A stretch of DNA of 36,782 nt from an uncultured Desulfobacteraceae bacterium. GTDB taxonomy: Bacteria > Desulfobacterota > Desulfobacteria > Desulfobacterales > SURF-15. Shown one piece after another: positions 7,840 through 36,782 of the stretch; position 1 is the stretch's first letter; each line of letters starts with the position of its first letter. Below the pieces are notes generated by a model. The model was not told where the DNA came from. It worked only from the letters and a program-made list of their open reading frames with translations, and searched no databases. The stretch spans positions 1 through 36,782 of the forward strand of contig CAYSUA010000001.1 in the NCBI GenBank assembly GCA_964433795.1, written 5' to 3'. The position numbers were made by a program, and so were the translations under genes.

Positions 7840-8358
7840 ATGCCATTCCAGTACACAAATAAAAGACATACAACCCACTTCCTTCATGAAGGGATAACGA
7901 AAAAGGGAAATCCCAAATATTATTTCTCCACCAGGACAGGCGGTAAATTGCTGGATAAAATACCCAAAGGATATGAAGTGTATGAACACCCCGCCAACGG
8001 GCAAGTTTTTTTGCGCAAAATACAACCTAAACGCATTACAGATACAGAAAAGAATATTGTAGACAAGAGCCTTGAACGCTTAAACAGACCAAGGCGCTAT
8101 ATTTGTGATATAAAGAAGAGAATTATTACTATTTACGAGTCCAACCAGGATATTGATAGATTAAAAGAGTTGTTCGGTGATTTGGCGGGAAGTGGTTTAT
8201 CCGAGGATGAGTCAGCCCTAATGGCTGTCATTGACAAAGCAGTCAATTATTCTCCTGTAATGCGGTTTATTCTTGAAGACGATGAAAAAAGAACTTTTAT
8301 TGCAGAGCGGTTTTGTTTTCTTGGTTCTATCGATGACTGGACTTATAGAGGGTCCTGA
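7840..8358 (+). CDS. Hypothetical protein (no family recognised)
   Basis: 172-aa ORF in an AT-rich stretch with no recognisable motifs. Coding status is judged only from length and a lack of competing ORFs. Confidence 0.5.
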   Translation: MPFQYTNKRHTTHFLHEGITKKGNPKYYFSTRTGGKLLDKIPKGYEVYEHPANGQVFLRKIQPKRITDTEKNIVDKSLERLNRPRRYICDIKKRIITIYESNQDIDRLKELFGDLAGSGLSEDESALMAVIDKAVNYSPVMRFILEDDEKRTFIAERFCFLGSIDDWTYRGS

Positions 8359-21819: not shown

Positions 21820-22316
21820 TCGTACTCCTGAGTCTCGTGGTATTTGTATTCAATCTCGATCCCGGCCTGTTCGAACATTTCCTCCGACTCTTTTGCCTGG
21901 TGGTATCGTCGTTCACAAACCACCCGTGTGATACCGCAGTTGATCAACAGCATGGCACACGTTCGGCACGGCGTCATGCGGCAATAAAGAGTGGCACCCT
22001 CTATGGATATGCCGAGCTTTGCGGCCTGGCATATTGCGTTCTGCTCGGCATGAACGGTTCGCACGCAGTGTTCGGAGATTTCCCCGTTTTCATGGGTCAT
22101 TTTTTTGATTTGATGTCCCGCATCATCGCAGTGGGTGAAACCCATGGGTGAGCCGACATATCCGGTCACAAGGATTTGCTTGTTCCTTGCGATCACGCAA
22201 CCGCTTCTTCCGCGATCGCATGTCGCCCTTTTGGAAACGGCATGGGCCACTTCCATGAAATAATCATCCCAGGTCGGACGTTGGTATTTTTCTGAACCAG
22301 TATCTTCAGCAGCCAT
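21816..22316 (-). CDS. Deoxycytidylate (dCMP) deaminase / CMP-dCMP deaminase zinc-binding protein
   Basis: Trimmed to ATG 22316 (RBS gaggag 8 nt upstream; the track TTG 22331 is less likely). It has the zinc motifs 'VHAEQNAI' and 'TPCRTCAMLLINCG'. Confidence 0.88.
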   Translation of the reverse strand: MAAEDTGSEKYQRPTWDDYFMEVAHAVSKRATCDRGRSGCVIARNKQILVTGYVGSPMGFTHCDDAGHQIKKMTHENGEISEHCVRTVHAEQNAICQAAKLGISIEGATLYCRMTPCRTCAMLLINCGITRVVCERRYHQAKESEEMFEQAGIEIEYKYHETQEYE

Positions 22317-22390
22317 GGTGTTGCTCCTCAAATGTGTGTGTTAACAAACCAACCTGGACAAGCCGGTTGGAGCGAAGCGATTCAATAAGT

Positions 22391-22593
22391 CCCGATTTAT
22401 CGGGGAAATTCCAAATCACAAATATCAAATTCCAAACAAATCACAATGACCGAAATTCAAAATCCCAAACATGCTCATGACATTGAAAAAATAAACATAT
22501 CAAAAATGTTTTGGTCATTGGATATTGTAATTTGTTATTTATTTGTAATTTGGTGCTTGTTATTTGAAATTTTAATCCCGATTTCATCGGGAT
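22391..22593. repeat. Long AT-rich imperfect palindrome capped by GC hairpins, between ddl and the dCMP-deaminase operon
   Basis: The terminal mini-hairpins are 'cccgatttatcgggg' (22391-22405) and 'atcccgatttcatcgggat' (22575-22593). The arm 'aaattccaaatcacaaatatcaaattccaaacaaatcacaatgaccgaaa' matches the reverse complement of 'ttttggtcattggatattgtaatttgttatttatttgtaatttggtgcttgttatttgaaatttt'. Confidence 0.75.
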
Positions 22594-22669
22594 GTATTAG
22601 TTTTTTACTTAAGATGCAAAGAAATGACAATTTAGACTCTAATAGTCATGCGGCTAAATGTAATCGGAG

Positions 22670-25111: not shown

Positions 25112-25334
25112 GATTGAAAATATATATGTTAGCCGCAGACACACACAGACATACGCAGACAATAAAGATTTTTTGCCTGGGCGACTTGCCCAGGCAAAAG
25201 CTTCAAATGCCTTTCAGGCATAAGCGTAATTATTATCGCGAAGCGATTGACTGTTTTTGCCTCCGCAAGTCGCGGAGGCAAAAGGTCCGTGTCCGTCTGT
25301 GTGTGTCGAGCGAACAAAGTGAGCGGGCGGCTAA
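25112..25334 (+). repeat. Structured MITE-like repeat, copy A (206-bp core 25129-25334 plus 16-nt leader)
   Basis: The core starts 'ttagccgcagacacacacagacatacgcagac' and ends 'gtccgtgtccgtctgtgtgtgtcgagcg...gcggctaa'. This gives an 8-bp terminal inverted repeat (TTAGCCGC/GCGGCTAA) and complementary CA/GT-rich arms. It contains four internal hairpins and is near-identical to 32492-32763 and 36746-36782. Confidence 0.85.
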
Positions 25335-25497
25335 TAAAAAACGTTTCTCTAAGAATCAATATCTAACATGCTTGAATCATAAAGATTTTTTTCAACTTCA
25401 AATCAATTAATACCAACTAAATCGGAGAAGAACCAAAGTTAAAAGTCGAAGAAGCTGGTAGCTTAAGACTGAACTCCCAGGGGTCATTTGAGTCAAT

Positions 25498-27237
25498 ATG
25501 TTGTTAAAAGAGACTGAAATTTTGATTGTGGACTGCCAGGCAACCGGAGCAAAACCTCAAAACGGGCATCTGATTGAAATCGGTTGGATGCGGTGTCAGC
25601 GGGGTCAAAAGGGTATTTTGACACCAACAGCGAGTAAGACTCTTTTGATTCAGCTACCGGAAGATGTCCATATTCCGAAACAGGTTGAACGAGTGACCGG
25701 GATTTTATCTGAGGATTTGTCTGATTCCATTCCCCTGGCTGATGCCTGGGCAAGACTGTTAAAAACGGCTCAAAAGACGGCGCAGGCCAATGAAACTTTT
25801 CGATGCCCGACAATCATCCATTTTGCTAGGTATGAGACACCTTTTCTACGGTTTTTGCACCGTCAGTTTGCACCGAACGCTCCGTTTCCATTTGAGATTG
25901 TTTGCACTCATGAGATTGTTAAAAGACTAGTGCCGGGGCTCCCGAGAAAGGGCCTGAGGGCGGTTGCCGGCTATTTCGGCTTCAGTACTTCGGAAAAAAG
26001 ACGATGCGAGCATCATTTGAAAGCCACCCTTTCCATATGGAACCGGGAAATGGAATTGTTGGAGCAGGACCATGACATCCAAACCCTTGATGACCTTATA
26101 TTGTGGCTTGAGCGCACGGAGCAAAACCAGAAACAGTGCCGTGTATATCCCATGGATCGGGAATTGCGTCTTAAACTGCCGGATGTTCCGGGGGTATACC
26201 GTTTCTTGAGATCGAACGGAGATTTGCTCTATATCGGTAAGGCAAAATCATTGAAAAGCCGCGTTAACAGCTACTTTCAGCAAAACCGAAAGCAGCCGGA
26301 GCACGTGCTGGAAATGCTGTCTCAAGCCTGCGACATCGATTATACGGACACAGACTCGGCCGTTGAAGCCGCTGTACTCGAAACGGACGAGATCAAGAGG
26401 CATTCACCGCCGTATAATATCGCATTGAAGCATGGAAACCGTGAAATCGGATTCAGCACAAGAGACTTCGTAAACCAAGCGCTGAAGCCGAATAAAACCA
26501 AACCCCTCGGCCCCCTTCCTTCACCGGGCACCTTGGTTCCGCTTTCCTTATTGAGCGAATTGCCGGCGTCTCGACAAGCACAAGCGGAAGACGTTTCCGC
26601 TGCATTGAATATCCCGGACGAATATGCTCCCGCCCTTCTTGTGTTCAGAGAGGGATTAGCCGAGTTTTTTCAAAGACACGAAACCGAGTTGAGATTCAAT
26701 TCGGCGTATCGGAATTTTATCCGGTTGGGCGCCATGTTTTGGAAAAAAGGGCTGGAGGAGTCGGATGAGGCTATTTTGGAAAAGGATGATCTGATAGAAG
26801 AAGGAATCGATGAGATCGAAGATGAAGAATGGGAGTGGACTCCGGATGCCGTGGCAAACGCCGTTGAAGGTGTTGTGCGTAGATGCGTGCATCTGATTCG
26901 CCGGGCACGATGGTTTTGCTTGATATCCGAATCGTCCCTGGTTTGGGAAAGAGGGTATAAGGAAAAGGCTGGTCGAAATTTTTTAGTATTCCACAAGGGG
27001 AAACTGGTGGAGAATGGGGTTATGAATGTTGGGGAGGATATACCCGTTCCATCCGGTTATAAGAGAAGCACGTTATTGAGACAGCAAAGCTTTGATGTGG
27101 CGACTTACGACCGCATGCGGGTGGTCACCACCGAAATCAGAAGACTGCTTTCCGAAGGGAGAGATATTGAACTCTGTCTGAGACCCAACACGGTGTTGAA
27201 GAACAAATCGCTTAAACGGTTTTTACAATGGGTTTAG
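25498..27237 (+). CDS. DnaQ-like (DEDD-fold) exonuclease domain fused to a GIY-YIG (UvrC/Cho-like) nuclease domain, plus a C-terminal region of about 270 aa with unknown function
   Basis: The N-terminus 'ILIVDCQATGAKPQNGHLIEIGW' and 'IIHFARYETPFLRFL' align by eye to Exo I/II of epsilon-like exonucleases. The GIY-YIG motifs are 'PGVYRFLRSNGDLLYIGKAKSLKSRVNSYF' and 'ETDEIKRHSPPYN'. Confidence 0.7.
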   Translation: MLLKETEILIVDCQATGAKPQNGHLIEIGWMRCQRGQKGILTPTASKTLLIQLPEDVHIPKQVERVTGILSEDLSDSIPLADAWARLLKTAQKTAQANETFRCPTIIHFARYETPFLRFLHRQFAPNAPFPFEIVCTHEIVKRLVPGLPRKGLRAVAGYFGFSTSEKRRCEHHLKATLSIWNREMELLEQDHDIQTLDDLILWLERTEQNQKQCRVYPMDRELRLKLPDVPGVYRFLRSNGDLLYIGKAKSLKSRVNSYFQQNRKQPEHVLEMLSQACDIDYTDTDSAVEAAVLETDEIKRHSPPYNIALKHGNREIGFSTRDFVNQALKPNKTKPLGPLPSPGTLVPLSLLSELPASRQAQAEDVSAALNIPDEYAPALLVFREGLAEFFQRHETELRFNSAYRNFIRLGAMFWKKGLEESDEAILEKDDLIEEGIDEIEDEEWEWTPDAVANAVEGVVRRCVHLIRRARWFCLISESSLVWERGYKEKAGRNFLVFHKGKLVENGVMNVGEDIPVPSGYKRSTLLRQQSFDVATYDRMRVVTTEIRRLLSEGRDIELCLRPNTVLKNKSLKRFLQWV

Positions 27238-27245
27238 CCAACCGC

Positions 27246-27635
27246 TTATCTCCGAAATCGGTCCTCCCAGTCAAACTCCGGTGAGGTTACAATATCTTCC
27301 ATCCGCTGAATCCGGCGTTTGAGATTTTGATATTTCCTTTTGAGCCGATTTACGCCCTGACGACTGGAGTGGGCATAGCTATCGTAGAATTCCTGCTCTT
27401 CGTCAGAGTGGATGGGAATTACCGGCTCAAGTTTCATGAGCAAGGCTGCCAGCAGGTACAGGGCGCCTATGGGCCAGAATCCGGTGAACAACAGCAAGGC
27501 CAGAATGATCATCCTTACCCAAAAAACAGAGAAATCGAAATATTCTCCAATCCCACGGCACACCCCTAATATCACACCATTTCGGGATCGGTACACACCG
27601 ATGCCCCGTCGAAGTCTTTCTAATCTATTTATCAT
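27246..27635 (-). CDS. pspC: Envelope stress response membrane protein PspC
   Basis: PspC domain 'LYRSRNGVILGVCRGIGEYFDFSVFWVRMIILALLLF'. It overlaps the pspB end by 11 nt. Confidence 0.85.
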   Translation of the reverse strand: MINRLERLRRGIGVYRSRNGVILGVCRGIGEYFDFSVFWVRMIILALLLFTGFWPIGALYLLAALLMKLEPVIPIHSDEEQEFYDSYAHSSRQGVNRLKRKYQNLKRRIQRMEDIVTSPEFDWEDRFRR

Positions 27636-27876
27636 TTCTATTCCTCTTTTCCCGGTCTAATAAGATCGTTTCAAGTGTTTCAATCCGTTCTTCCAGATGG
27701 CCCAGGCCTTGATAAATCTCCTGCACCATCCCGGCTTCATTGGATAGTTTTTCTCTATCTTTGCGGGATACGCCCCCTTTTATAATTTTAATGGCCATGA
27801 GAATGGTCCCGCTGATGATGGCCAAGGCCAGCACAATTCCCGAAAAAACAACGGTTACAATCATAACGGTATGCAT
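27625..27876 (-). CDS. pspB: Phage shock protein B
   Basis: 83 aa with a single N-terminal TM helix followed by 'EAGMVQEIYQGLGHLEERIETLETILLD', the typical PspB C-terminal helix. It is positioned between pspA and pspC. Confidence 0.8.
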   Translation of the reverse strand: MHTVMIVTVVFSGIVLALAIISGTILMAIKIIKGGVSRKDREKLSNEAGMVQEIYQGLGHLEERIETLETILLDREKRNRNDK

Positions 27877-28004
27877 GGGAGGCTCCGCTCGCTTTCTATT
27901 ATGGTTTTGGGATCCGTTTGACTCTCTTCTCTACCTGGATCTTTATTTCATGAAATCGGATAATTTTCAAACTACAGAACCGGTATCAACAAGAGTGATA
28001 ATAG

Positions 28005-28700
28005 TCATTCCATTGTATGCGGGTGATCATTTGTATCTGTATCTGATGCGGGCTTCTTCTTCAGTGCCTGCAGCTCCTCTTCAATTTCATCATCCGAGTT
28101 CAGTTTATCGAGCTCTTCCTCTAGTGTGGTTCGCCTTCCATAATTGACTAAATCTGCTTCTGATTCCATCCGCTCGATTCGGTTTTCGAAATCATCGAAT
28201 TTATGGACGGCGTCCGCACTGTCCATTTTCCGAATATCTTCCTGAGCCTGTCTCTTCCTTTTGGCATGAATATGCCGTTGAGTCAGCATTCGTTGTTTGT
28301 TTCGGGCGGTTTTGAGTTTTTCCTCCAGTTGACGGATGTCATCCTGATACTGGTCGACAAGTTGGTTGAGGTCGGCGATTTCAGACTCTAGGACGTCTAT
28401 CCTTCGTGTATATCGACGTTTTTCATGAAGCGCTTCTCTTGCCAGGTCATCCCGGCCCTTTTGAACCGCCATGCCGGCCTTTTCCTCCCAATATTCCGAT
28501 CTTCCGGTCATTTCCTCGAGTTGACGCTCGGTTTTTTTTCGCTCTGCCATAACACCGGCGCAGGACGCCTTAATTTCAACCAGCGTATCTTCCATTTCCC
28601 GTATCATCAGCCGGATGAGTTTTTCAGGATCCTCTGCTTTGTCCAACATTGAGTTGAGGTTGGAACTGACGATGTCTCGAAATCGTGTAAAAATACCCAT
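28005..28700 (-). CDS. pspA: Phage shock protein A (PspA/IM30 family)
   Basis: 'MGIFTRFRDIVSSNLNSMLDKAEDPEKLIRLMIREMEDTL' is the canonical PspA N-terminus, and the rest is coiled coil. RBS ggaggtg. Confidence 0.92.
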   Translation of the reverse strand: MGIFTRFRDIVSSNLNSMLDKAEDPEKLIRLMIREMEDTLVEIKASCAGVMAERKKTERQLEEMTGRSEYWEEKAGMAVQKGRDDLAREALHEKRRYTRRIDVLESEIADLNQLVDQYQDDIRQLEEKLKTARNKQRMLTQRHIHAKRKRQAQEDIRKMDSADAVHKFDDFENRIERMESEADLVNYGRRTTLEEELDKLNSDDEIEEELQALKKKPASDTDTNDHPHTME

Positions 28701-28734
28701 GACTCACCTCCGTTTTGGTTTTGCCTTAATAGAT

Positions 28735-28750
28735 AGCATCATGCGTGCCA
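28735..28750 (-). promoter_or_regulatory. Sigma54 (-24/-12) promoter of pspABC
   Basis: The minus strand reads TGGCACGCATGATGCT. The GG and GC dinucleotides have the canonical spacing, with one mismatch to TGGCACG-N4-TTGCW. It lies 35-50 nt upstream of the pspA ATG, with the bEBP gene pspF divergent. Confidence 0.7.
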
Positions 28751-28795
28751 AGTGTTATTTCTTATTTAACATCAAGGAGTTACTTCAATTTGGAC

Positions 28796-28825
28796 TTGAC
28801 AGGGCAAAAAATAAAGTGGTATAAA
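28796..28825 (+). promoter_or_regulatory. Candidate sigma70 promoter of pspF
   Basis: TTGACA (28796-28801), an 18-nt spacer, then TATAAA (28820-28825), about 45 nt upstream of ATG 28871. Confidence 0.4.
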
Positions 28826-28870
28826 AGGCTAAAAATTAGTAAATATAACTATTATAGTGCAATAATAACC

Positions 28871-29944
28871 ATGAAGAAACGAATAAGAACATACCCCCAG
28901 CCTTCGGAATCCAAATCTCCTGTGGGAGTGGCAGAGGCGTTGGGTCAGTCAGAAGCTTTTTTAGCTTTTCAAGAACGGTTGTCTCGGGTCGCACCGGTCG
29001 ATCGTCCCGTACTGCTGCTGGGCGAGCGGGGAACCGGCAAGGAGCTTGCCGCCTCACGGTTGCATTACCTGTCTAGCCGATGGCAAGGACCATTGGTGGC
29101 GCTGAACTGTGCAGCGCTAACCCCCTCTTTGATCGAATCGGAGCTGTTCGGTCATGAAAGAGGCGCATTTACCGGGGCGCAGCAGCGACGTGGGGGACGG
29201 TTCGAAGCGGCAGGCGGCGGCACCCTTTTTTTAGATGAGATCGGAAATATCCCCGTGGAGGTGCAAGAAAAGATTTTGCGGGTTGTGGAATACAATACGT
29301 TTGAACGCGTGGGAAGCTCCGAGACCATTGAAGTGGACGCCCGAATCATCGCCGCCACCAATGCCGACCTGGTTACTATGGCCGGGGCAGGGCGATTCAA
29401 ACAAGACCTTTTGGATCGCCTGTCCTTTGAGGTCCTCTTTTTGCCTCCTCTGCGTGAACGGAAGGGGGATATCCTATTGCTGGCCAACCATTTTGCAGCC
29501 AGGATGGCTTATGAATTGAAATGGCCGGAGATTCCGGAATTCAGCTCCGCAGCCGTTGAATCTCTTCAAAACTATAATTGGCCGGGTAATGTCCGTGAGC
29601 TGAAGAACGTCGTTGAACGGGCGGTTTATCGATGTGATGCCATGATCATTGAGGACATATCCTTTAACCCCTTTACGTCTCCTTATGAACCCAAACGGAT
29701 ACCATTCCCTGAACCGCCTGTGCAGCAGGATTTTGAGTCTCAGCCGGATGATGAATCGGATATCATGGCGATGACGTTGAATGAAGCGGTCTGGGAGGTG
29801 AAAGTGCGAATGCTGGAACAAGCACTTGTGGAATCCAAATATCATCAAAAGGAAGCTGCTCGCCGCTTGGGGTTGACGTACCATCAGTTTCGGGGGCTTT
29901 ATCGACAATACAGGAGCAAGAGTGATGAATCCGGATCGGGTTGA
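28871..29944 (+). CDS. pspF: Sigma54-dependent transcriptional activator PspF (AAA+ bEBP without a receiver domain)
   Basis: Trimmed to ATG 28871, because the 28745 start would overlap the sigma54 promoter. It has Walker A '[14 protein letters not shown]', the sigma54-contact loop 'ERGAFTGA', Walker B 'LFLDEIG' and the C-terminal HTH '[19 protein letters not shown]'. Confidence 0.88.
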
Positions 29945-29958
29945 ATGAAAAGGGAAAT

Positions 29959-29985
29959 GGGCGGTTCTTTAAGAACCGCCCTTTG
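29959..29985. terminator. Bidirectional intrinsic terminator between pspF and hsp20
   Basis: GC-rich hairpin 'gggcggttc tttaa gaaccgccc' followed by 'tttg', with 'aaa' on the other side. It sits between convergent genes. Confidence 0.6.
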
Positions 29986-30015
29986 ACCGAGGTATGAGAT
30001 GACGACGCGTGCTGT

Positions 30016-30459
30016 TTAATGGATCGTGATTTGTTTGGGTTTTTCCTTTTCCGACTTCGGGATTTCAACGCTGAGCAGACCATCTTTATAGTCGGCCTTG
30101 ATTTTTTCTGGATCTAATCCGTCCGGCAAGGTAAATGATCTCTCAAATTTTCCGTATGCTCTTTCTCTACGGTAATACTTATCACCTTCCGTTTCATTAT
30201 CATATGTGCGTTCACCTTTGAGCGTCAGAATTCTGTCTTTGACATCGATTGTGATATCTTTCTTCTCCAGCCCGGGAAGTTCGGCCTTGATGACGATTTC
30301 TTCATCCCTATCGTAAATATCCACCATGGGTTGCCAGTTGGTCATTTCAATTTCACCATTGTTAAATTCGGCCCTTGTATAAGAATCATCAAAAAACCGG
30401 TTAAAAAAATTCTGCATTGTTACTGTTTCTCTCCAGGGAGACCATCTTACGAGTGTCAT
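30016..30459 (-). CDS. Small heat-shock protein, Hsp20/alpha-crystallin family
   Basis: 147 aa. 'WQPMVDIYDRDEEIVIKAELPGLEKKDITIDV...LTLKGER' and 'GLLSVEIPK' form the alpha-crystallin domain. RBS aaaggagga. Confidence 0.92.
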   Translation of the reverse strand: MTLVRWSPWRETVTMQNFFNRFFDDSYTRAEFNNGEIEMTNWQPMVDIYDRDEEIVIKAELPGLEKKDITIDVKDRILTLKGERTYDNETEGDKYYRRERAYGKFERSFTLPDGLDPEKIKADYKDGLLSVEIPKSEKEKPKQITIH

Positions 30460-30539
30460 TTTTAGTTCCTCCTTTATTTTTAATGATTTTAATCTTATGA
30501 TACCTGTTCCAATATTTTTATTTGTGTTTCATGATAGAT

Positions 30540-30567
30540 ATGTTAATAATGAAACGAGTTATGTCAA
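30540..30567 (-). promoter_or_regulatory. Candidate sigma70 promoter of hsp20
   Basis: The minus strand reads TTGACA (30567-30562), a 16-nt spacer, then TAACAT (30545-30540). This would give a 5' UTR of about 70 nt. Confidence 0.3.
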
Positions 30568-30768
30568 GAAAAAAATATTATAAATCTTTGCATTACTAAA
30601 TATAAATATTATATTGAAGTAATGATAAGGGAAAATCAATTTAAAACAATGCGGTTATGCATTAAGCTCAAGTTGCTTACAGGAATCGGCTCACCTTCAA
30701 AGCCGCAAGTGCTTGACTTGAAAAGGTTTCTGCAGAATCGGATAAAACAATTATAAGGATGGACACAA

Positions 30769-31365
30769 ATGGCAAAAAATGAAGATGAAAATGGATTTGA
30801 AGGGCTACCGCTTCCAGAACCGACATCGGCAGAACTGAGAGGGCGGCAATCGGTTCGGGCTACATTCCGGATATCCGAAAGAGCCATCGATGCACTCAGT
30901 ATCGTTTCGGTTCATCTGGGTATTAAGCAGAAATCGCTTTTTGACCATCTTATTGAAGACAGCGACACACTTCGGCTCATTGCAAGGGAAATCGAATCCT
31001 ATGAATTTCAACAGCTGAACCGGATTCAAAAAACCTATGTTCTGAGCCGAAAAACACTCTCTTCCCTGGACAGAGCAGCAAGATCCCAGAACGCCCCGAG
31101 GGATGCTCTGGTTGAATATTCGATTCAACGGTTGCTGCCGATCATATTAAAAGAGCGAGAAAAGCACCTCATGCGGAAAGAAATCCTGGGAGACTTGACG
31201 GAGTTCTTAAAAGAAGGTGAAAAAATTCTTAGAAAATCGAAAGATTCACTGGGTTCGGATGACCCTGTTTACGACAGGCTCAGGGCAGCCATGGTCGGCC
31301 TTGTGAATGCATATCGCCATATAGATAGTTATGTGGAGAAGGGGAAGATTATCGAAGAATTTTAA
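30769..31365 (+). CDS. Hypothetical protein with two ribbon-helix-helix-like repeats
   Basis: 198 aa. RBS aaggatgg. No family was recognised. Two segments, 'VRATFRISERAIDALSIVSVHLGIKQKSLFDHLIE' and 'QKTYVLSRKTLSSLDRAARSQNAPRDALVEYSIQRLL', look like beta-strand/helix/turn/helix RHH units. Confidence 0.5.
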   Translation: MAKNEDENGFEGLPLPEPTSAELRGRQSVRATFRISERAIDALSIVSVHLGIKQKSLFDHLIEDSDTLRLIAREIESYEFQQLNRIQKTYVLSRKTLSSLDRAARSQNAPRDALVEYSIQRLLPIILKEREKHLMRKEILGDLTEFLKEGEKILRKSKDSLGSDDPVYDRLRAAMVGLVNAYRHIDSYVEKGKIIEEF

Positions 31366-31383
31366 TACCGCTTCTAACCGTTT

Positions 31384-32460
31384 CTACAGGTAGCTGATGG
31401 GGTTGAGCCCTTTCTTTCGGCGGATGGCTTCCAGGAGTCCGACGGTTCCTGTCATCATGTTGTCGCCCAAGGGAGCACCCAGCGTCATGGTGAGTTTAGA
31501 ATTCTCCACCAGCTTGCGTTTGGGTCCTGTTGCCACGATGAGTTCTGCTGCATCGAACCCAAAAGCCTTTCTTGTGTAAGCGCCATGCCCCCCTTCCTTA
31601 AGTATCTGTTGATGCTCCAGATTTCCATTCGCCAACTCCGGTATCAGAGCATCCAGCTTTTCCACAGTGATGTCATGGGTGTGGTATTCGAAAGATCCGG
31701 CAATTTCATCTCCAATCAATGCTGCTCCTACCGTGTGAGATGTTGCCACATCCAACACGATTATCTTCTCCTTTGCACGTGCCTGCGGATCCATGGATGC
31801 GCCGAGAATTGCGGCCATCCCGCTGTCCATCACGTAGACTTCATCGGCCGGGAGATCATCGGCAACCATTGCAATGGAACTCAAGCGATTAAACGTCTCT
31901 GGAACTTCATTCCTTTCATAGAGCAGGGTGTGCGGGTAGGGGTTTTTATCCAGTCTTTCTTTGAAAAGATAATGACGATAATCCAAATGGGATCGACCAT
32001 CCGGGGGAACACCATGGTCCTGGGCGCAGACCCCCACGCTTTCGAAAGAAAAGGGGGCACCGAATCCTTCTACAATTTTTTCCAACCGAGGAATATCCAA
32101 ATCTCCGAGCGTAAATTGATTGAAATCCGACCGGTCGATGTACGCTTTGGTATCCGAATCTTTGATAACAATAATCCCGGTAGCCCGAACTTTCTCCAGA
32201 TTGTGATGGAGGGTTGCAGCGGCGGATTCGGTCATGACCACCTGCGCTTCCTTTGTTCGTTCTTGCAGGGCCTGGGTAATGGGCCCGCCTCCCATTTCAT
32301 TTCCGACCACCAGCAGATTCCCTGGAAGATTCTCCACCTCTCTAGCCAGGGTTCGAACCGGAGATTCCACAACCGCTTTATAGTGGATGCCGGACGCATC
32401 GTCATAGTAAAGCACGTCCATGGTACCGGCACCGATATCGATCAACAAATAACGACTCAC
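31384..32460 (-). CDS. ASKHA (actin-like ATPase) superfamily protein, DUF1786-like
   Basis: Trimmed to GTG 32460, which is preceded by aagagagg. The track start 32712 lies inside repeat B. The phosphate-1 motif is 'YLLIDIGAGTMDVL', with later 'VLDVATSHT' and 'ATGPKR' segments. The DUF1786 assignment is by eye. Confidence 0.6.
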   Translation of the reverse strand: MSRYLLIDIGAGTMDVLYYDDASGIHYKAVVESPVRTLAREVENLPGNLLVVGNEMGGGPITQALQERTKEAQVVMTESAAATLHHNLEKVRATGIIVIKDSDTKAYIDRSDFNQFTLGDLDIPRLEKIVEGFGAPFSFESVGVCAQDHGVPPDGRSHLDYRHYLFKERLDKNPYPHTLLYERNEVPETFNRLSSIAMVADDLPADEVYVMDSGMAAILGASMDPQARAKEKIIVLDVATSHTVGAALIGDEIAGSFEYHTHDITVEKLDALIPELANGNLEHQQILKEGGHGAYTRKAFGFDAAELIVATGPKRKLVENSKLTMTLGAPLGDNMMTGTVGLLEAIRRKKGLNPISYL

Positions 32461-32491
32461 GATTAAACCTCTCTTTATTAACAGAAGATTA

Positions 32492-32763
32492 TTAGCCGCA
32501 GACACACACAGACATACGCAGACAATAAAGATTTTTGCCTGGGCGACCCGTCTTCGCCTGAGGCTTCGCCGCGGCAAGCCTTGCCCAGGCAAAAGTTTCA
32601 AATGCCTTTCAGGCATAAGCGTAATTATTATCGCGAAGCGATTGACTGTTTTTGCCTCCGCAAGTCGCGGAGGCAAAAGGTCCGTGTCCGTCTGTGTGTG
32701 TCGAGCGAACAACTTGTCGGGTCGTAGCTCGCAGAGCGAAGCCTGAAGTGAGCGGGCGGCTAA
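32492..32763 (+). repeat. Structured MITE-like repeat, copy B (272 bp; copy A plus two insertions)
   Basis: Its termini and internal sequence match copy A. Outside two insertions (32548-32580 and 32713-32746) I saw only two differences: a T5 versus T6 run and one c/t change. Confidence 0.85.
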
Positions 32764-32844
32764 TTAATAGAGTGATGTTGATAAGCCGTGTATTTACATT
32801 TTAAGTCGGTTCCACCAACCAAATTGGAGAAGAACCAAGAAAAT

Positions 32845-33930
32845 TTATGGTTCGCACGTCACATGACACACCCCGGTGGGTGTCTCAACGGTAAAAGGAA
32901 AATATTTGCTCTTAAATTTCAGGGCGACATTGACCATGCTGATCAGCACCGGAACTTCCACCAGGGGTCCGATCACCGCTGCAAATGCCTGCCCGGAATC
33001 GATGCCGAAAACCGCGACCGCCACTGCAATGGCAAGTTCAAAATTGTTCGAGGCTGCGGTAAAACTTAAAGTTGTCGATTGTTCATAGGTTGCCCCCACT
33101 TTCATGGAAAGAAAGAAAGAGACGAAAAACATCAACACAAAATAGATGCACAGGGGAATGGCAATGCGAATGACGTCAACGGGTAATTGTACGATAAATT
33201 CGCCTTTTAAAGAAAACATCACCAGAATCGTAAACAAAAGGGCGATCAAGGTGATCGGGCTGATTTTCGGGATGAATTTTTCTTCATACCAGGTTTGGCC
33301 TTTGGTTTTGATTCCGATGACACGGGTGATGATTCCCCCGATAAACGGTATGCCTAAATAGATAAACACACTTTCCGCGATCTGTCCGATGGAGATATCG
33401 ACCACTGCACCCTTCATCCCGAGCCATGCCGGTACCAGGGTAATGAAGAAGTAGGCATAAACGGAAAAGAACAGGACCTGGAAAATAGAGTTGAATGCCA
33501 CAAGGCCCGCGCAATACTCCCGGTCTCCTGCGGCGAGATCGTTCCAGACAATGACCATGGCAATGCATCGGGCCAAACCGATCAATATCAATCCCACCAT
33601 GTATTCGTGATGACCGGAAAGAAACGATATGGCCAGAAGAAACATCAAGATGGGGCCGATCACCCAATTTTGAACCAGGGAAAGCCCAAGCACTTTGAAA
33701 TTTCGAAAGACCTGCCCGAGCTGCTCATATTTTACTTTTGCAAGCGGTGGGTACATCATCAGAATGAGGCCGATGGCGATGGGGATGTTGGTGGTGCCCA
33801 CCTGAAAGTAGTTGATCACTTTGCGGATGCCCGGGAAAAAATATCCCCAAAAAACGCCGATAAACATCCCGAGAAAAATCCATAACGTCAGATAACGATC
33901 CAGAAACGACAGCCGCTTTACATCTTCCAT
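32845..33930 (-). CDS. acr3: Arsenite efflux permease, ACR3 family
   Basis: '[20 protein letters not shown]', '[24 protein letters not shown]', '[10 protein letters not shown]' and '[21 protein letters not shown]'-type motifs, including the conserved Cys in 'RCIAMV'. The RBS aaggaa and start lie 27 nt after the upstream VWA gene stop. Confidence 0.92.
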
Positions 33931-33957
33931 ATGACCATTCCTTTCTTGAAAACCGCT

Positions 33958-35148
33958 CTATTTGATCATCAATTGTTTCACAGCGCTATCCAAACCGTCC
34001 AGGGACAGTTCAAACATGGGAAAGATATCTCGGATGACCTGAATGGTGCGGGTATACTCCCACCGGATTTGGGAGATCGGATTCAACCACACGGAATGCG
34101 GGAACAGGTCCGCCAAAAATTTCAACCGTTCAATACTCGGAACATAGGTCCTTTCCTCGACATGGATAGACCCGTCTGTCATCATCAACTCATAAGGGGC
34201 CATGCTGGCATCGCCCACGAGGACCAGCCGGGTATCCGGATTCATGCGAGCGAATTCTTCAATTCTGCGGGGTTTTCGAAATCGTTCCGGATCCTGCCAG
34301 AGATTGTCGTATATGGTATTGTGAAAATAGTAAGTCTTAAGATCTTTAAATTGATTCCCGGCATAATCAAAAATGGTTTGCACAATGCGAATATACGGGT
34401 CCATTGACCAGCCACCGTTATCGATGGCCAGAATAACCTTCAACCGATCTTTCAGGTTCCGGTCGAAGACGATTTCGATCTCGCCTCCGTTTTTAACCGT
34501 TTGATACAGGGTCTCATCGATATTGATTCGATCTTTGGGCCCGGAGGGTATCATGTGCCGCAGCCGTTTGAGTGCCTCGCCGATCATCGGTTTTGTCAAG
34601 GGACCCTGATGGGAATAATCTTTGTATCGCCTCTCCATGGCGACTTTTACGGCGGATTGACCCCGGGAGATGCCCCCCACCCTGAGACCTCCGGGATGGT
34701 AACCGGAATGCCCGACAGGAGAGGTGCCGCCGGTGCCGATCCACCTGCTTCCCCCCTGGTGTTTTTCCTGCTGCTCTTCAAGCGTTTTCTTGAAATATTC
34801 AATCAGTTCTTCGGGAGTCATCTGGCTCAGTTCAGATTCATCCACACCCAGGAGTTTGGATAAGGTTTCGGGGTCTTTGAGCCATTCTTCGAGTAGTGCT
34901 TTGGCGGTTTCCGTAATTTCAAGACCCTTATCGTCCGGCAATTCAGCCCCTTCAAATTGATGGGCAAACAACTGATCAAAAAGGTCAAAATACCGCTCGC
35001 TTTTTACCAGGATGGATCGTGCGGCAACGTAGAAATCATCCAGCGAGTCGACCAGACCGTTGCTCAATGCCCGCTGAAGCGTAAGAAAAGACGTTGGGCT
35101 AACCGGAATTCCGATATCTTTCAGTTTGTAGAAAAAATCGATAAACAT
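33958..35148 (-). CDS. VWA-domain protein, CoxE-like (MoxR partner)
   Basis: 396 aa. The N-terminus 'MFIDFFYKLKDIGIPVSPTSFLTLQRAL...SLDDFYVAARSILVKSERYFDLFDQLF' is typical of CoxE-like VWA proteins. The C-terminal VWA-like region includes 'KVILAIDNGGWSMD'. The start overlaps the moxR stop (TGATG). Confidence 0.78.
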   Translation of the reverse strand: MFIDFFYKLKDIGIPVSPTSFLTLQRALSNGLVDSLDDFYVAARSILVKSERYFDLFDQLFAHQFEGAELPDDKGLEITETAKALLEEWLKDPETLSKLLGVDESELSQMTPEELIEYFKKTLEEQQEKHQGGSRWIGTGGTSPVGHSGYHPGGLRVGGISRGQSAVKVAMERRYKDYSHQGPLTKPMIGEALKRLRHMIPSGPKDRINIDETLYQTVKNGGEIEIVFDRNLKDRLKVILAIDNGGWSMDPYIRIVQTIFDYAGNQFKDLKTYYFHNTIYDNLWQDPERFRKPRRIEEFARMNPDTRLVLVGDASMAPYELMMTDGSIHVEERTYVPSIERLKFLADLFPHSVWLNPISQIRWEYTRTIQVIRDIFPMFELSLDGLDSAVKQLMIK

Positions 35149-35999
35149 CAGATTAATCCGCGACGGTGATGGATATTGCTCGCCCTTTCATAATCCTGGC
35201 TTTTCTTAAACAGCACCCCTAAAAAAGGAACATCGCCCTTTTTCAATTGTTTGGGTTTAAAATCCGGGTCCGCATTCAGGGCCCGGATCCAATTGATCAA
35301 TTCCCGGGTCGCCGGTTTCTTCTCGATGTTATCGATTTCCCTGAGGCCGTAGAAGGTTTCGATGGCGTTTCCGGCAATATCGGAATCGATATCCGGAAAG
35401 TGAGCGTTGATGATTTTCCGCATCATGTCGGGATCCGGAAATGCAATGTGGTGGAAGTTGCATCGGCCGAGAAAAGGATCTGAAAGGTCCTTCTTGGCAT
35501 TGGATGTAATGATGATGACCGGTCGATGTGTTGTCTGTACGGTTTTATCGATTTCCATGATATCAAACTCCATCTGATCCAGCACATCGAGCATATCATC
35601 TTGGAAGTCCGTATCCGCCTTGTCGATCTCATCGATGAGCAGCACCGATCTGACCTCCGAGGTGAACGCCTGGCCGATCTTTCCCATTCTGATGTACTCT
35701 TCGATGTTGCTCACATCTCTATTGGAGTCTGCAAACCGGCTATCGTTTAAACGGGTAAGGGTATCGTATTGATAGAGGGCGTCCACCAGCTTCATGCTCG
35801 ATTTGACGTTGAGCACAATCAGCGGCATTTCAAGGCTTTCGGCAATGGCATAGGCGAGCATGGTTTTACCGGTGCCGGGTTCCCCTTTCAGCAACAGCGG
35901 CATTTCCAGCGCCATGGAAATGTTTACGATCTTGGCGAGTTCATCGTCCAGTACATAAGTTTGTGAACCTCTGAATTGACTTGTAACCTTTTCCAGCAT
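35148..35999 (-). CDS. MoxR-family AAA+ ATPase (CoxD-like)
   Basis: 283 aa with Walker A 'LLLKGEPGTGKTMLA' and Walker B 'VLLIDEIDKAD'. The length is typical of single-AAA MoxR proteins, and it is coupled to a VWA protein. Confidence 0.85.
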   Translation of the reverse strand: MLEKVTSQFRGSQTYVLDDELAKIVNISMALEMPLLLKGEPGTGKTMLAYAIAESLEMPLIVLNVKSSMKLVDALYQYDTLTRLNDSRFADSNRDVSNIEEYIRMGKIGQAFTSEVRSVLLIDEIDKADTDFQDDMLDVLDQMEFDIMEIDKTVQTTHRPVIIITSNAKKDLSDPFLGRCNFHHIAFPDPDMMRKIINAHFPDIDSDIAGNAIETFYGLREIDNIEKKPATRELINWIRALNADPDFKPKQLKKGDVPFLGVLFKKSQDYERASNIHHRRGLI

Positions 36000-36224
36000 C
36001 TTTGTCTCTCCATATAAATAGAATGATTAATTTTAAAAACGGGATCGACTTTATCATAACTGATGTCGATAACCAACCTTAGATCTAATGGAATTTATTC
36101 GGAATTCCGGCAGCTATTCAGGTTTGACCTTTTGGCCATTGACAAATCGAATTCATGTGACTAACTTAACAGGAATTCCAAAAATCCGGAATGACCCAAA
36201 GATTTGATCCACAAGGAGGATATA

Positions 36225-36530
36225 ATGGTAGAAGTTACAGTATCAGCAACAGAACAGATTTCTGAATATTTCAAAGGCAAGGATATCCAGCCCGTTCGGG
36301 TTTTCCTGAATGAGGGCGGGTGAGGCGGACCATCGCTTGGCTTGGTTCTGGATGAACCCAAAGACGACGACAGTGTATTCGATGTTGAAGGTTTTCAGTA
36401 TATTATCAACAAAGATCTGATGGAAAAAGCCCAACCCATTAAAATCGATTTCCTGCAGATGGGTTTCAAAATTGATTCCGGCCTCGAGTTTGGATCCGAT
36501 ACCGGTTGCGGCGGCTGCTCCTGCGGCTAA
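36225..36530 (+). CDS. HesB/IscA-like A-type Fe-S scaffold protein with in-frame TGA (candidate selenocysteine, codon 33)
   Basis: ATG 36225 is preceded by the strong RBS aaggagga (36213-36220). A single frame is open to TAA 36528-36530 except for TGA 36321-36323. The translation is ...VRVFLNEGG-U-GGPSLGLVLDEP...GCGGCSCG, and the TGA falls at the position of the first conserved cluster-ligand Cys of IscA/HesB ('GGCxG'). The track only lists the downstream fragment 36342..36530. Confidence 0.72.
36324..36360 (+). promoter_or_regulatory. Candidate bacterial SECIS hairpin(s) downstream of TGA 36321
   Basis: There are two mutually exclusive stems. The first pairs GGACCA (36327-36332) with UGGUUC (36343-36348) around a 10-nt loop 'ucgcuuggcu'. 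The second pairs GGUUC (36344-36348) with GAACC (36354-36358) around the loop 'uggau'. Both loops contain G/U and start within 6-23 nt of the UGA. No folding energy was computed. Confidence 0.45.
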
Positions 36531-36554
36531 TCAAAAAATTCATTGTCAAACCAT

Positions 36555-36597
36555 ATCAGGCGGTACATTCGGTAGAGTGTGCCGCCTGATTTTTATT
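36555..36597 (+). terminator. Rho-independent terminator after the HesB-like gene
   Basis: The stem 'atcaggcgg' (36555-36563) pairs with 'ccgcctgat' (36582-36590) and is followed by 'ttttatt'. Confidence 0.7.
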
Positions 36598-36728
36598 CGC
36601 CTTCGCCTAAATACCCTGCTGCTCTCCTCAAAATCCTAAATCGCCAATCACAATTCGAAAATAGTTTGACCTTTTCTCCGCTTTCCAGCTATCTTACCTA
36701 TCGATTTCGGCCGGTTAGCCCTGATACC

Positions 36729-36782
36729 GATTGAAAATATATATTTTAGCCGCAGACACACACAGACATACGCAGACAATAA
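36729..36782 (+). repeat. Structured MITE-like repeat, copy C (truncated by the window end)
   Basis: The 16-nt leader 'gattgaaaatatatat' plus 'ttagccgcagacacacacagacatacgcagacaataa' is identical to the start of copy A. Confidence 0.8.

Follow-up and report, generated by a model that had tools for sequence, protein, structure and literature searches.

Near the right-hand end of a 36,782-nt contig from an uncultured Desulfobacteraceae bacterium (CAYSUA010000001.1, positions 1 to 36,782; hereafter the window) lies a small gene of the IscA/HesB family whose reading frame contains a single TGA codon. From ATG 36225, the frame runs through 32 codons to TGA 36321-36323, and then through 68 codons to TAA 36528-36530; there is no other internal TGA. 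The coding sequence comprises 101 codons, including one predicted selenocysteine (Sec) codon, plus the stop. The locus, entirely on the forward strand, contains these features:

36139..36167, + strand: possible sigma-70 promoter, read from the sequence (TTGACA 36139-36144, 17-nt spacer, TAACTT 36162-36167)
36213-36220, + strand: Shine-Dalgarno sequence AAGGAGGA, read from the sequence, 5 nt upstream of ATG 36225
36225..36530, + strand: complete coding sequence of a predicted selenoprotein, IscA/HesB family (NF038090), from profile matches and the fold of a homologue
36321..36323, + strand: in-frame TGA, predicted Sec33, motif GG-U-GGP, aligned with the first of the ligand Cys residues in A-type carriers
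36344..36358, + strand: core hairpin of a bacterial Sec insertion sequence (SECIS), GGUUC-UGGAU-GAACC, from the bacterial SECIS (bSECIS) criteria and comparative evidence
36507..36524, + strand: C-terminal Cys cluster C95-G-G-C98-S-C100, likely to correspond to the CGC ligand pair in IscA/SufA
36555..36598, + strand: intrinsic terminator, a 16-pair stem-loop (36555-36590) followed by a T-run

Genomes and metagenomes were scanned, with a yield of 91 related loci. The motif is encoded in 86 loci, counting the window. TGA occupies the identical column in 85 of the 86, with TGC in the remaining one, and protein conservation extends across it (GG-U-GGPSL...LDEP). Among the carriers are Desulfosarcina alkanivorans PL12 (NZ_AP021874.1, gene at about 1,874,274-1,874,561 on the reverse strand), Desulfocarbo indianensis, metagenome-assembled genomes (MAGs) of Desulfarculaceae and Desulfobacterales, a Myxococcota MAG, and many metagenomes; the orders represented include Desulfobacterales and Desulfarculales. 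Recurrence of the same TGA between conserved flanks lies far beyond chance. Orthologues with a Cys codon, whose existence had been proposed as a check, were found as well: homologues P0012, P0014-16, P0021, P0024, and P0029-33 have Cys at column 33. The window copy is about 62-72% identical to its nearest homologues in genomes or long contigs. The nearest named relatives are Deltaproteobacteria/Desulfobacterales, and an aminotransferase encoded in the window is 65-67% identical to proteins from 'Deltaproteobacteria bacterium' MAGs.

At this locus the program-made list of open reading frames (ORFs) holds two pieces and nothing else: one of 39 residues (36204-36323), and one of 62 residues that starts at TTG (36342-36530). 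The original prediction had instead proposed a 101-codon frame with one TGA, opened by ATG 36225 behind a strong ribosome-binding site, and this frame is borne out, with a translation identical to the one given there. All 84 homologous loci have a strong Shine-Dalgarno 5-mer ahead of the N-terminal ATG, and none of the 84 has one ahead of the start of the 62-residue fragment. That fragment begins at residue 40, within a predicted β-strand (residues 37-42 of the homologue model), as the original prediction had also held. The terminator stem-loop begins 25 nt past the stop codon. With its own ribosome-binding site and its own terminator, the gene therefore stands alone. The promoter is a weaker proposition: its −10 hexamer fits the consensus at only three of six positions, for which reason a consensus scan did not report it, and relatives do not conserve it.

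With U written as C, the product matches the NCBIfam model NF038090 "IscA_HesB_Se" at 116.8 bits, against a curated cutoff of 85 (E = 4.4e-34; residues 1-97 on profile positions 1-101 of 101). All 31 relatives tested, Sec and Cys forms alike, match the same model. Alignment to Pfam had been suggested for this purpose, and PF01521 (Fe-S_biosyn) does match residues 2-86 (E = 7.9e-5), although its 23.3 bits fall slightly under the gathering threshold of 26.3; NF038090 is the decisive match. Several Cys-form relatives have a precomputed PF01521 match. Generic A-type carrier models score far below their equivalog cutoffs (for example, TIGR02011, 35.6 versus 150.6). HesB-like proteins have been listed as a prokaryotic selenoprotein family since the mid-2000s (PMC1088965, PMC1794560, PMC13188914), so the family is not new, as had been acknowledged from the outset. 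The window protein shares with NF038090 its length, the GG-U/C-GGP and LDEP motifs, and a Cys-rich C-terminal tail; it has no family-defining feature of its own, and differs in the GUU/GAA version of its hairpin stem (see below) and in its gene neighbourhood. A second relative is the classical TIGR01911 group of HesB-like proteins (for example, Methanococcus maripaludis MMJJ_08070, and members in many Deltaproteobacteria and Clostridia). Here superfamily, fold, anaerobic host types, and Sec at the first-Cys position (UxGP; UGGP in the window) are all shared (PMC13188914, PMC1794560, PMC11097638). The score against TIGR01911 HesB_rel_seleno is nevertheless 33.6 bits, below the cutoff of 66.35, and the C-terminal CxxCxC tail lies outside the matched residues 4-75. 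The window protein therefore belongs to a sister subfamily with a Cys-rich tail. The U33-G-G-P36 sequence fits the UxGP motif of HesB-like selenoproteins, a motif present in nearly all 85 TGA loci.

Structural comparison supports the view that the product is a homologue of A-type carriers (IscA/HesB). The family profile matches solved members of that group: Aquifex Aq_1857 (1NWB, 1.4e-13), Escherichia coli IscA (1S98, 1R94), HI1723, SufA (2D2A), and Thermosynechococcus elongatus IscA (1X0G). In these matches, residue 33 falls on the column of the first ligand Cys (E. coli IscA Cys35, in GGCSG of Aq_1857 or in SGCSG), and the tail Cys residues align with the C-terminal CGC region. The original prediction had placed the TGA on this very column, within an A-type iron-sulfur (Fe-S) scaffold layout; both points hold, the Cys-form homologues having Cys there. 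A structure model was taken from one of them, P0012, which is 62% identical to the window protein and free of indels before the tail. The AlphaFold model (predicted local distance difference score [pLDDT] 85.1, predicted template-modelling score [pTM] 0.74) is confident except for a disordered Cys-rich tail. Ten PDB entries match it significantly, most of them IscA, SufA, Aq_1857, HI1723, or IscA-like DsrR, headed by 1X0G (IscA with [2Fe-2S]), 1R94, 2D2A, and 1S98, with template-modelling scores of 0.60-0.70 (0.70 for 1S98) and probability 1.00. Compared with IscA/SufA/ErpA as a group (1S98, 1R94, 1X0G, 2D2A, 1NWB, 2APN), the window protein thus has the same fold by homologue model, with residue 33 on IscA Cys35 and tail Cys on the CGC pair; it differs in having a predicted Sec for the first ligand Cys, in a tail that is CxxCxC or variable rather than C-G-C, and in lying outside any isc/suf operon. 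Of 83 complete homologues, 82 have three or more Cys within the last 22 residues; in 72 of 76 homologues no Cys-type residue occurs other than in the tail and at U/C33. The tail Cys columns are invariant in one family alignment (A5).

The hairpin at 36344-36358 starts 20 nt past the TGA and overlaps the codons for V-L-D-E-P; within the window it can be extended to 36341-36363 with a 2-nt bulge, giving a stem of 8 bp rather than 5. The four published bSECIS criteria (PMC13188914) call for a loop of 3-9 nt with G in its first two positions (usually as G[G|U]), a stem spanning 4-16 bp, a UGA-to-loop distance of 16-37 nt, and a minimum free energy of −7.5 kcal/mol or lower. The window hairpin has a 5-nt loop (UGGAU) with G at position 2 and then G, a 5-bp stem, a UGA-to-loop distance of 25 nt, and a minimum free energy of −11.5 kcal/mol, with pair probabilities of 0.83-0.98; it thus passes. 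Energies of −7.5 kcal/mol or lower were found in all 85 homologues. Relative to the bSECISearch consensus, whose archetype is E. coli fdhF, the stem-loop within the coding sequence after the UGA, the small apical loop with G then G, and the spacing are the same; the differences are a family stem of 5 bp that starts 20 nt after the UGA, a lower stem that is not conserved, and the absence of an Rfam match.

Comparative analysis used 82 distinct TGA-form sequences. The RNAalifold consensus contains the 36344-36358 helix only, with no conserved lower stem. Standard pairs fill 99.5% of pair cells, versus at most 52% in a control with the 3' arm slid. One pair is compensatory, being C-G in 77 sequences and U-A in five (the window, three Desulfarculales loci, and the Myxococcota locus), and a further 17 cells show G-U wobble changes. 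The window has the minority version of the stem, GUU/GAA. Across the family, the stem falls within codons for (A/V)-L-D-E-P. Ala+8 is encoded by GCU in 76 of 77 sequences (0.10 of 2.0 bits), versus five of 76 for Ala+6; Leu+9 is CUG in 80 of 82, versus 27 of 82 for Leu+5; and Glu+11 is GAG wherever Ala stands at +8 (77/77) and GAA wherever Val does (5/5). The synonymous entropy of flanking codons is near maximal. Homologues with a Cys codon use GCC for Ala+8, and seven of nine such lineages retain only one to three of the five pairs (Fisher p = 1.5e-7, a value that ignores phylogeny). Synonymous freezing and covariation 3' of the TGA point to a functional RNA element, and these together with decay in the Cys forms show that the SECIS structure is under selection. 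The original prediction had placed hairpin-forming sequence immediately after the TGA. A SECIS-type hairpin is indeed there, conserved and covarying, although the conserved one starts 20 nt downstream; in the window alone, a small hairpin also folds directly 3' of the UGA, but homologues do not conserve it, and it was rejected.

These observations suggest how the gene is decoded. Very probably the gene is intact and monocistronic, and encodes a 101-residue NF038090 selenoprotein of IscA/HesB type (A-type carrier fold), with Sec inserted at the UGA. Translation would begin at ATG 36225. With the ribosome at UGA 36321-36323, SelB carrying Sec-tRNA(Sec) would bind the mRNA hairpin at 36344-36358, whose apical loop UGGAU lies 25 nt past the UGA; Sec would be inserted in place of termination, and translation would proceed to TAA 36528. 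In the product, Sec33 would replace the first of the three thiolate ligands used by A-type carriers, and, together with the flexible C-terminal Cys cluster (C95, C98, C100), could hold iron or an Fe-S cluster at the dimer interface. Sec33 in place of a ligand Cys, in combination with the Cys cluster, makes carriage of a metal or Fe-S cluster (or of selenium or sulfur), with a selenolate as key ligand, the likeliest role. For an archaeal HesB-like protein, selenoprotein status has been established by 75Se labelling (PMC11097638).

Several points weigh against this interpretation. The carrier function is inferred from homology; the literature describes the function of HesB-like selenoproteins as unclear, and an M. 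maripaludis disruption mutant had no nitrogen-fixation phenotype (PMC11097638). The window's C-terminal CxxCxC, a pattern that varies across the NF038090 family, departs from the canonical CGC. Genes for isc, suf, and nif functions are absent from the neighbourhood of the HesB gene in the window and in related loci, and the neighbourhood itself is not conserved. The 36.8-kb window contains no tRNA, and Pfam scans of its approximately 37 ORFs found no selA, selB, or selD; in the flanks of 58 related loci no selA, selB, or selD was found either, and the only tRNAs there are tRNA-Pro and tRNA-Leu, with neither tRNA-Sec nor selC*, a tRNA discussed below. An ENA scaffold (L101), 99.98% identical to window positions 25309-36782, adds about 1 kb that likewise holds no sel genes or tRNA-Sec. 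The host's capacity to decode Sec is thus assumed from its lineage only, Deltaproteobacteria being rich in selenoproteins, including HesB-like ones (PMC1794560).

Other reservations concern the hairpin. Its stem is short (5 bp). The single compensatory pair occurs in five sequences from about three lineages, the remaining support being invariance or wobble, and the p-values ignore phylogeny. Rfam searches at gathering and at permissive thresholds returned no SECIS or other credible family, only chance matches with E > 5. Two Cys-form loci, L094 (410-463) and L099 (2286-2339), still form the full 5-pair stem, although the L099 loop, UUGAU, has lost its GG. Plausibly these stems are remnants of recent Sec-to-Cys conversion, an event reported for the HesB-like family (PMC1794560). 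Folding of the region had been proposed as a check, with a divided result: the bSECIS criteria are passed at 36344-36358, but the fold of 36315-36385 taken alone is no more stable than that of shuffled sequences (z = +0.57). The case for the hairpin hence rests on comparative evidence, not on thermodynamics.

The most serious competing explanation concerns the tRNA that reads the internal UGA, which the content of the window does not indicate. A tRNA-Cys with a UCA anticodon (selC*), a second elongation factor (SelB*), and a dedicated cysteinyl-tRNA synthetase (CysRS*) have been described in Desulfobacterales and Syntrophobacterales (PMC7609411, PMC5389517). This is the lineage of the family's closest relatives (the closest genome matches are Desulfobacterales), and those reports name no target genes for the system. 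The UGA might accordingly be recoded to Cys, or to Cys or Sec depending on selenium supply, with SelB* reading the hairpin. Such recoding is nevertheless very unlikely. The selC* genomes are reported to have a complete Sec apparatus too (PMC5389517), so Sec decoding stays the default. A Cys product would need only a plain UGC, yet 85 of 86 loci keep a costly UGA and SECIS. This near-universal retention, along with the hairpin's decay after fixation of a Cys codon, argues that Sec is the selected product. HesB-like proteins are established as selenoproteins elsewhere (PMC11097638, PMC1794560), and no selC*, selB*, or cysS* gene was found near any locus examined. Less probable again is a specific form of this idea, in which UGA and hairpin are a target of selC*, SelB*, and CysRS* that yields a Sec form with selenium and a Cys form without it. 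If true, one gene would serve as a Sec/Cys switch for a metal or Fe-S carrier, and the selC* system would have its first identified client.

Two other readings take the TGA either as a genuine stop that leaves a pseudogene, or a 32-residue peptide and/or a separately started 62-residue fragment, or as a sense codon in the host code. The former finds some encouragement in the ORF list and in public gene callers, which yield just such fragments or nothing, and in the unremarkable energy of the single-sequence fold. It is most improbable all the same, given the same TGA with conserved flanks in 85 loci across several orders, the restriction of strong Shine-Dalgarno sequences to the N-terminal ATG (84/84 versus 0/84), and the frozen and covarying sequence downstream; moreover, the fragment would start inside a β-strand of what is modelled as one compact domain, and either fragment alone would have an incomplete ligand set. 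As for reassignment to Trp or Gly (translation tables 4 or 25), W indeed appears at the TGA column in database proteins P0001-P0011, P0026, and P0027. Homologues show Cys at this column, not Trp, however, and the W entries are artefacts of gene calling with code 4. Stop usage already refutes reassignment, which retains virtually no probability. TGA ends 12 of 30 other Pfam-supported full-length genes in the window, and 32 of 83 homologues pass the internal TGA and then use TGA as their final stop; decoding is therefore local to the internal codon, the code being unchanged. Cultured relatives, Desulfosarcina alkanivorans and Desulfocarbo indianensis, carry the same TGA, and their lineages use the standard bacterial code. 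Insertion of Sec remains the preferred explanation.

Standard gene calling had been expected to truncate or miss this gene, and it does: the ENA call on the near-identical scaffold is empty here, and elsewhere callers place W at the TGA or report the 62-residue fragment. Public entries for the family consequently come in three guises: full-length proteins with 'W', produced under a TGA=Trp code; 62-residue C-terminal fragments; and genuine Cys forms. Wrongly called database proteins comprise those with W listed above (P0001-P0011, P0026, P0027) together with P0013, P0017-19, P0022, and P0028. The locus illustrates neatly how a real gene can be dropped or mistranslated by annotation pipelines, and how far even known selenoprotein families are under-counted in metagenomes. 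The family itself is known and curated; the find adds an overlooked member with anatomy ordinary for its kind, and leaves the picture unchanged. It does raise two questions: which task a selenolate performs as the first ligand of an A-type carrier, and what keeps the costly UGA and SECIS in place in about 99% of the closest homologues. The alignment of about 85 sequences, with a compact 15-nt SECIS lying over the conserved LDEP, provides a well-defined substrate for experiments on the role of the selenolate.

Genomic context was considered as a clue to function and rejected: the neighbours in related loci differ from one locus to another, have no link to Fe-S biogenesis, and do not occur at the window locus. 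Clustering of neighbours over 85 loci (with output that consists partly of shadow ORFs) identified a gene for a zinc-ribbon protein of the FmdB family (PF09723), located about 0.3-1 kb upstream in the same orientation, in approximately 38 related loci (L013-L091). Downstream genes vary, and include nitroreductase-like, enoyl-CoA hydratase, epimerase, and FmdE genes; the window locus has none of these, nor FmdB. A distant Cys form in a Proteobacteria MAG (L100, 3001-6351) presents a different arrangement, in which the IscA/HesB-like gene is followed by genes for a rhodanese, a 2-hydroxyacyl-CoA dehydratase (HGD-D), and a BcrAD/BadFG-type activator. Among the contexts observed, it alone hints at maturation of sulfur or Fe-S enzymes.

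In the window, the genes divergent from the HesB gene (33958-35999, − strand) encode a MoxR-type AAA ATPase (283 residues) and then a 396-residue protein with no Pfam match; a gene for an ACR3/SBF-type transporter adjoins these two. Upstream of the HesB gene are GGAATTCC / CGGAAT palindromes and direct repeats (36092-36108, 36163-36182, and 36184-36192) that could be an operator. A family-wide operator of this type was rejected, since the GGAATTCC-type palindromes were not found upstream of homologues.

Just past the HesB terminator, the window ends inside a copy of a short dispersed repeat, the probable cause of the contig break. The repeat is about 130-350 nt long, with 85-99% identity among at least three copies: 36729-36782 (continuing in L101, 1028-726), ~25112-25434, and ~32580-32712 together with ~32490-32530. 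ORF 31384-32712 has a 5' extension that shares sequence with one of the copies; in the ENA call this ORF is shortened to 358 residues.

A second candidate for a TGA-split ORF, 22306-22587 (− strand), was rejected as AT-rich, low-complexity intergenic sequence. The AT-rich stretch that gave rise to it (22340-22600, − strand) contains two hairpin-like palindromes of the form CCCGAT(G/A)AAATCGGGA. Elsewhere, the window encodes a nickel superoxide dismutase (PF09055; 7285-7737), in what is apparently an anaerobic deltaproteobacterium, followed by a 172-residue ORF (7840-8358) with no family match.

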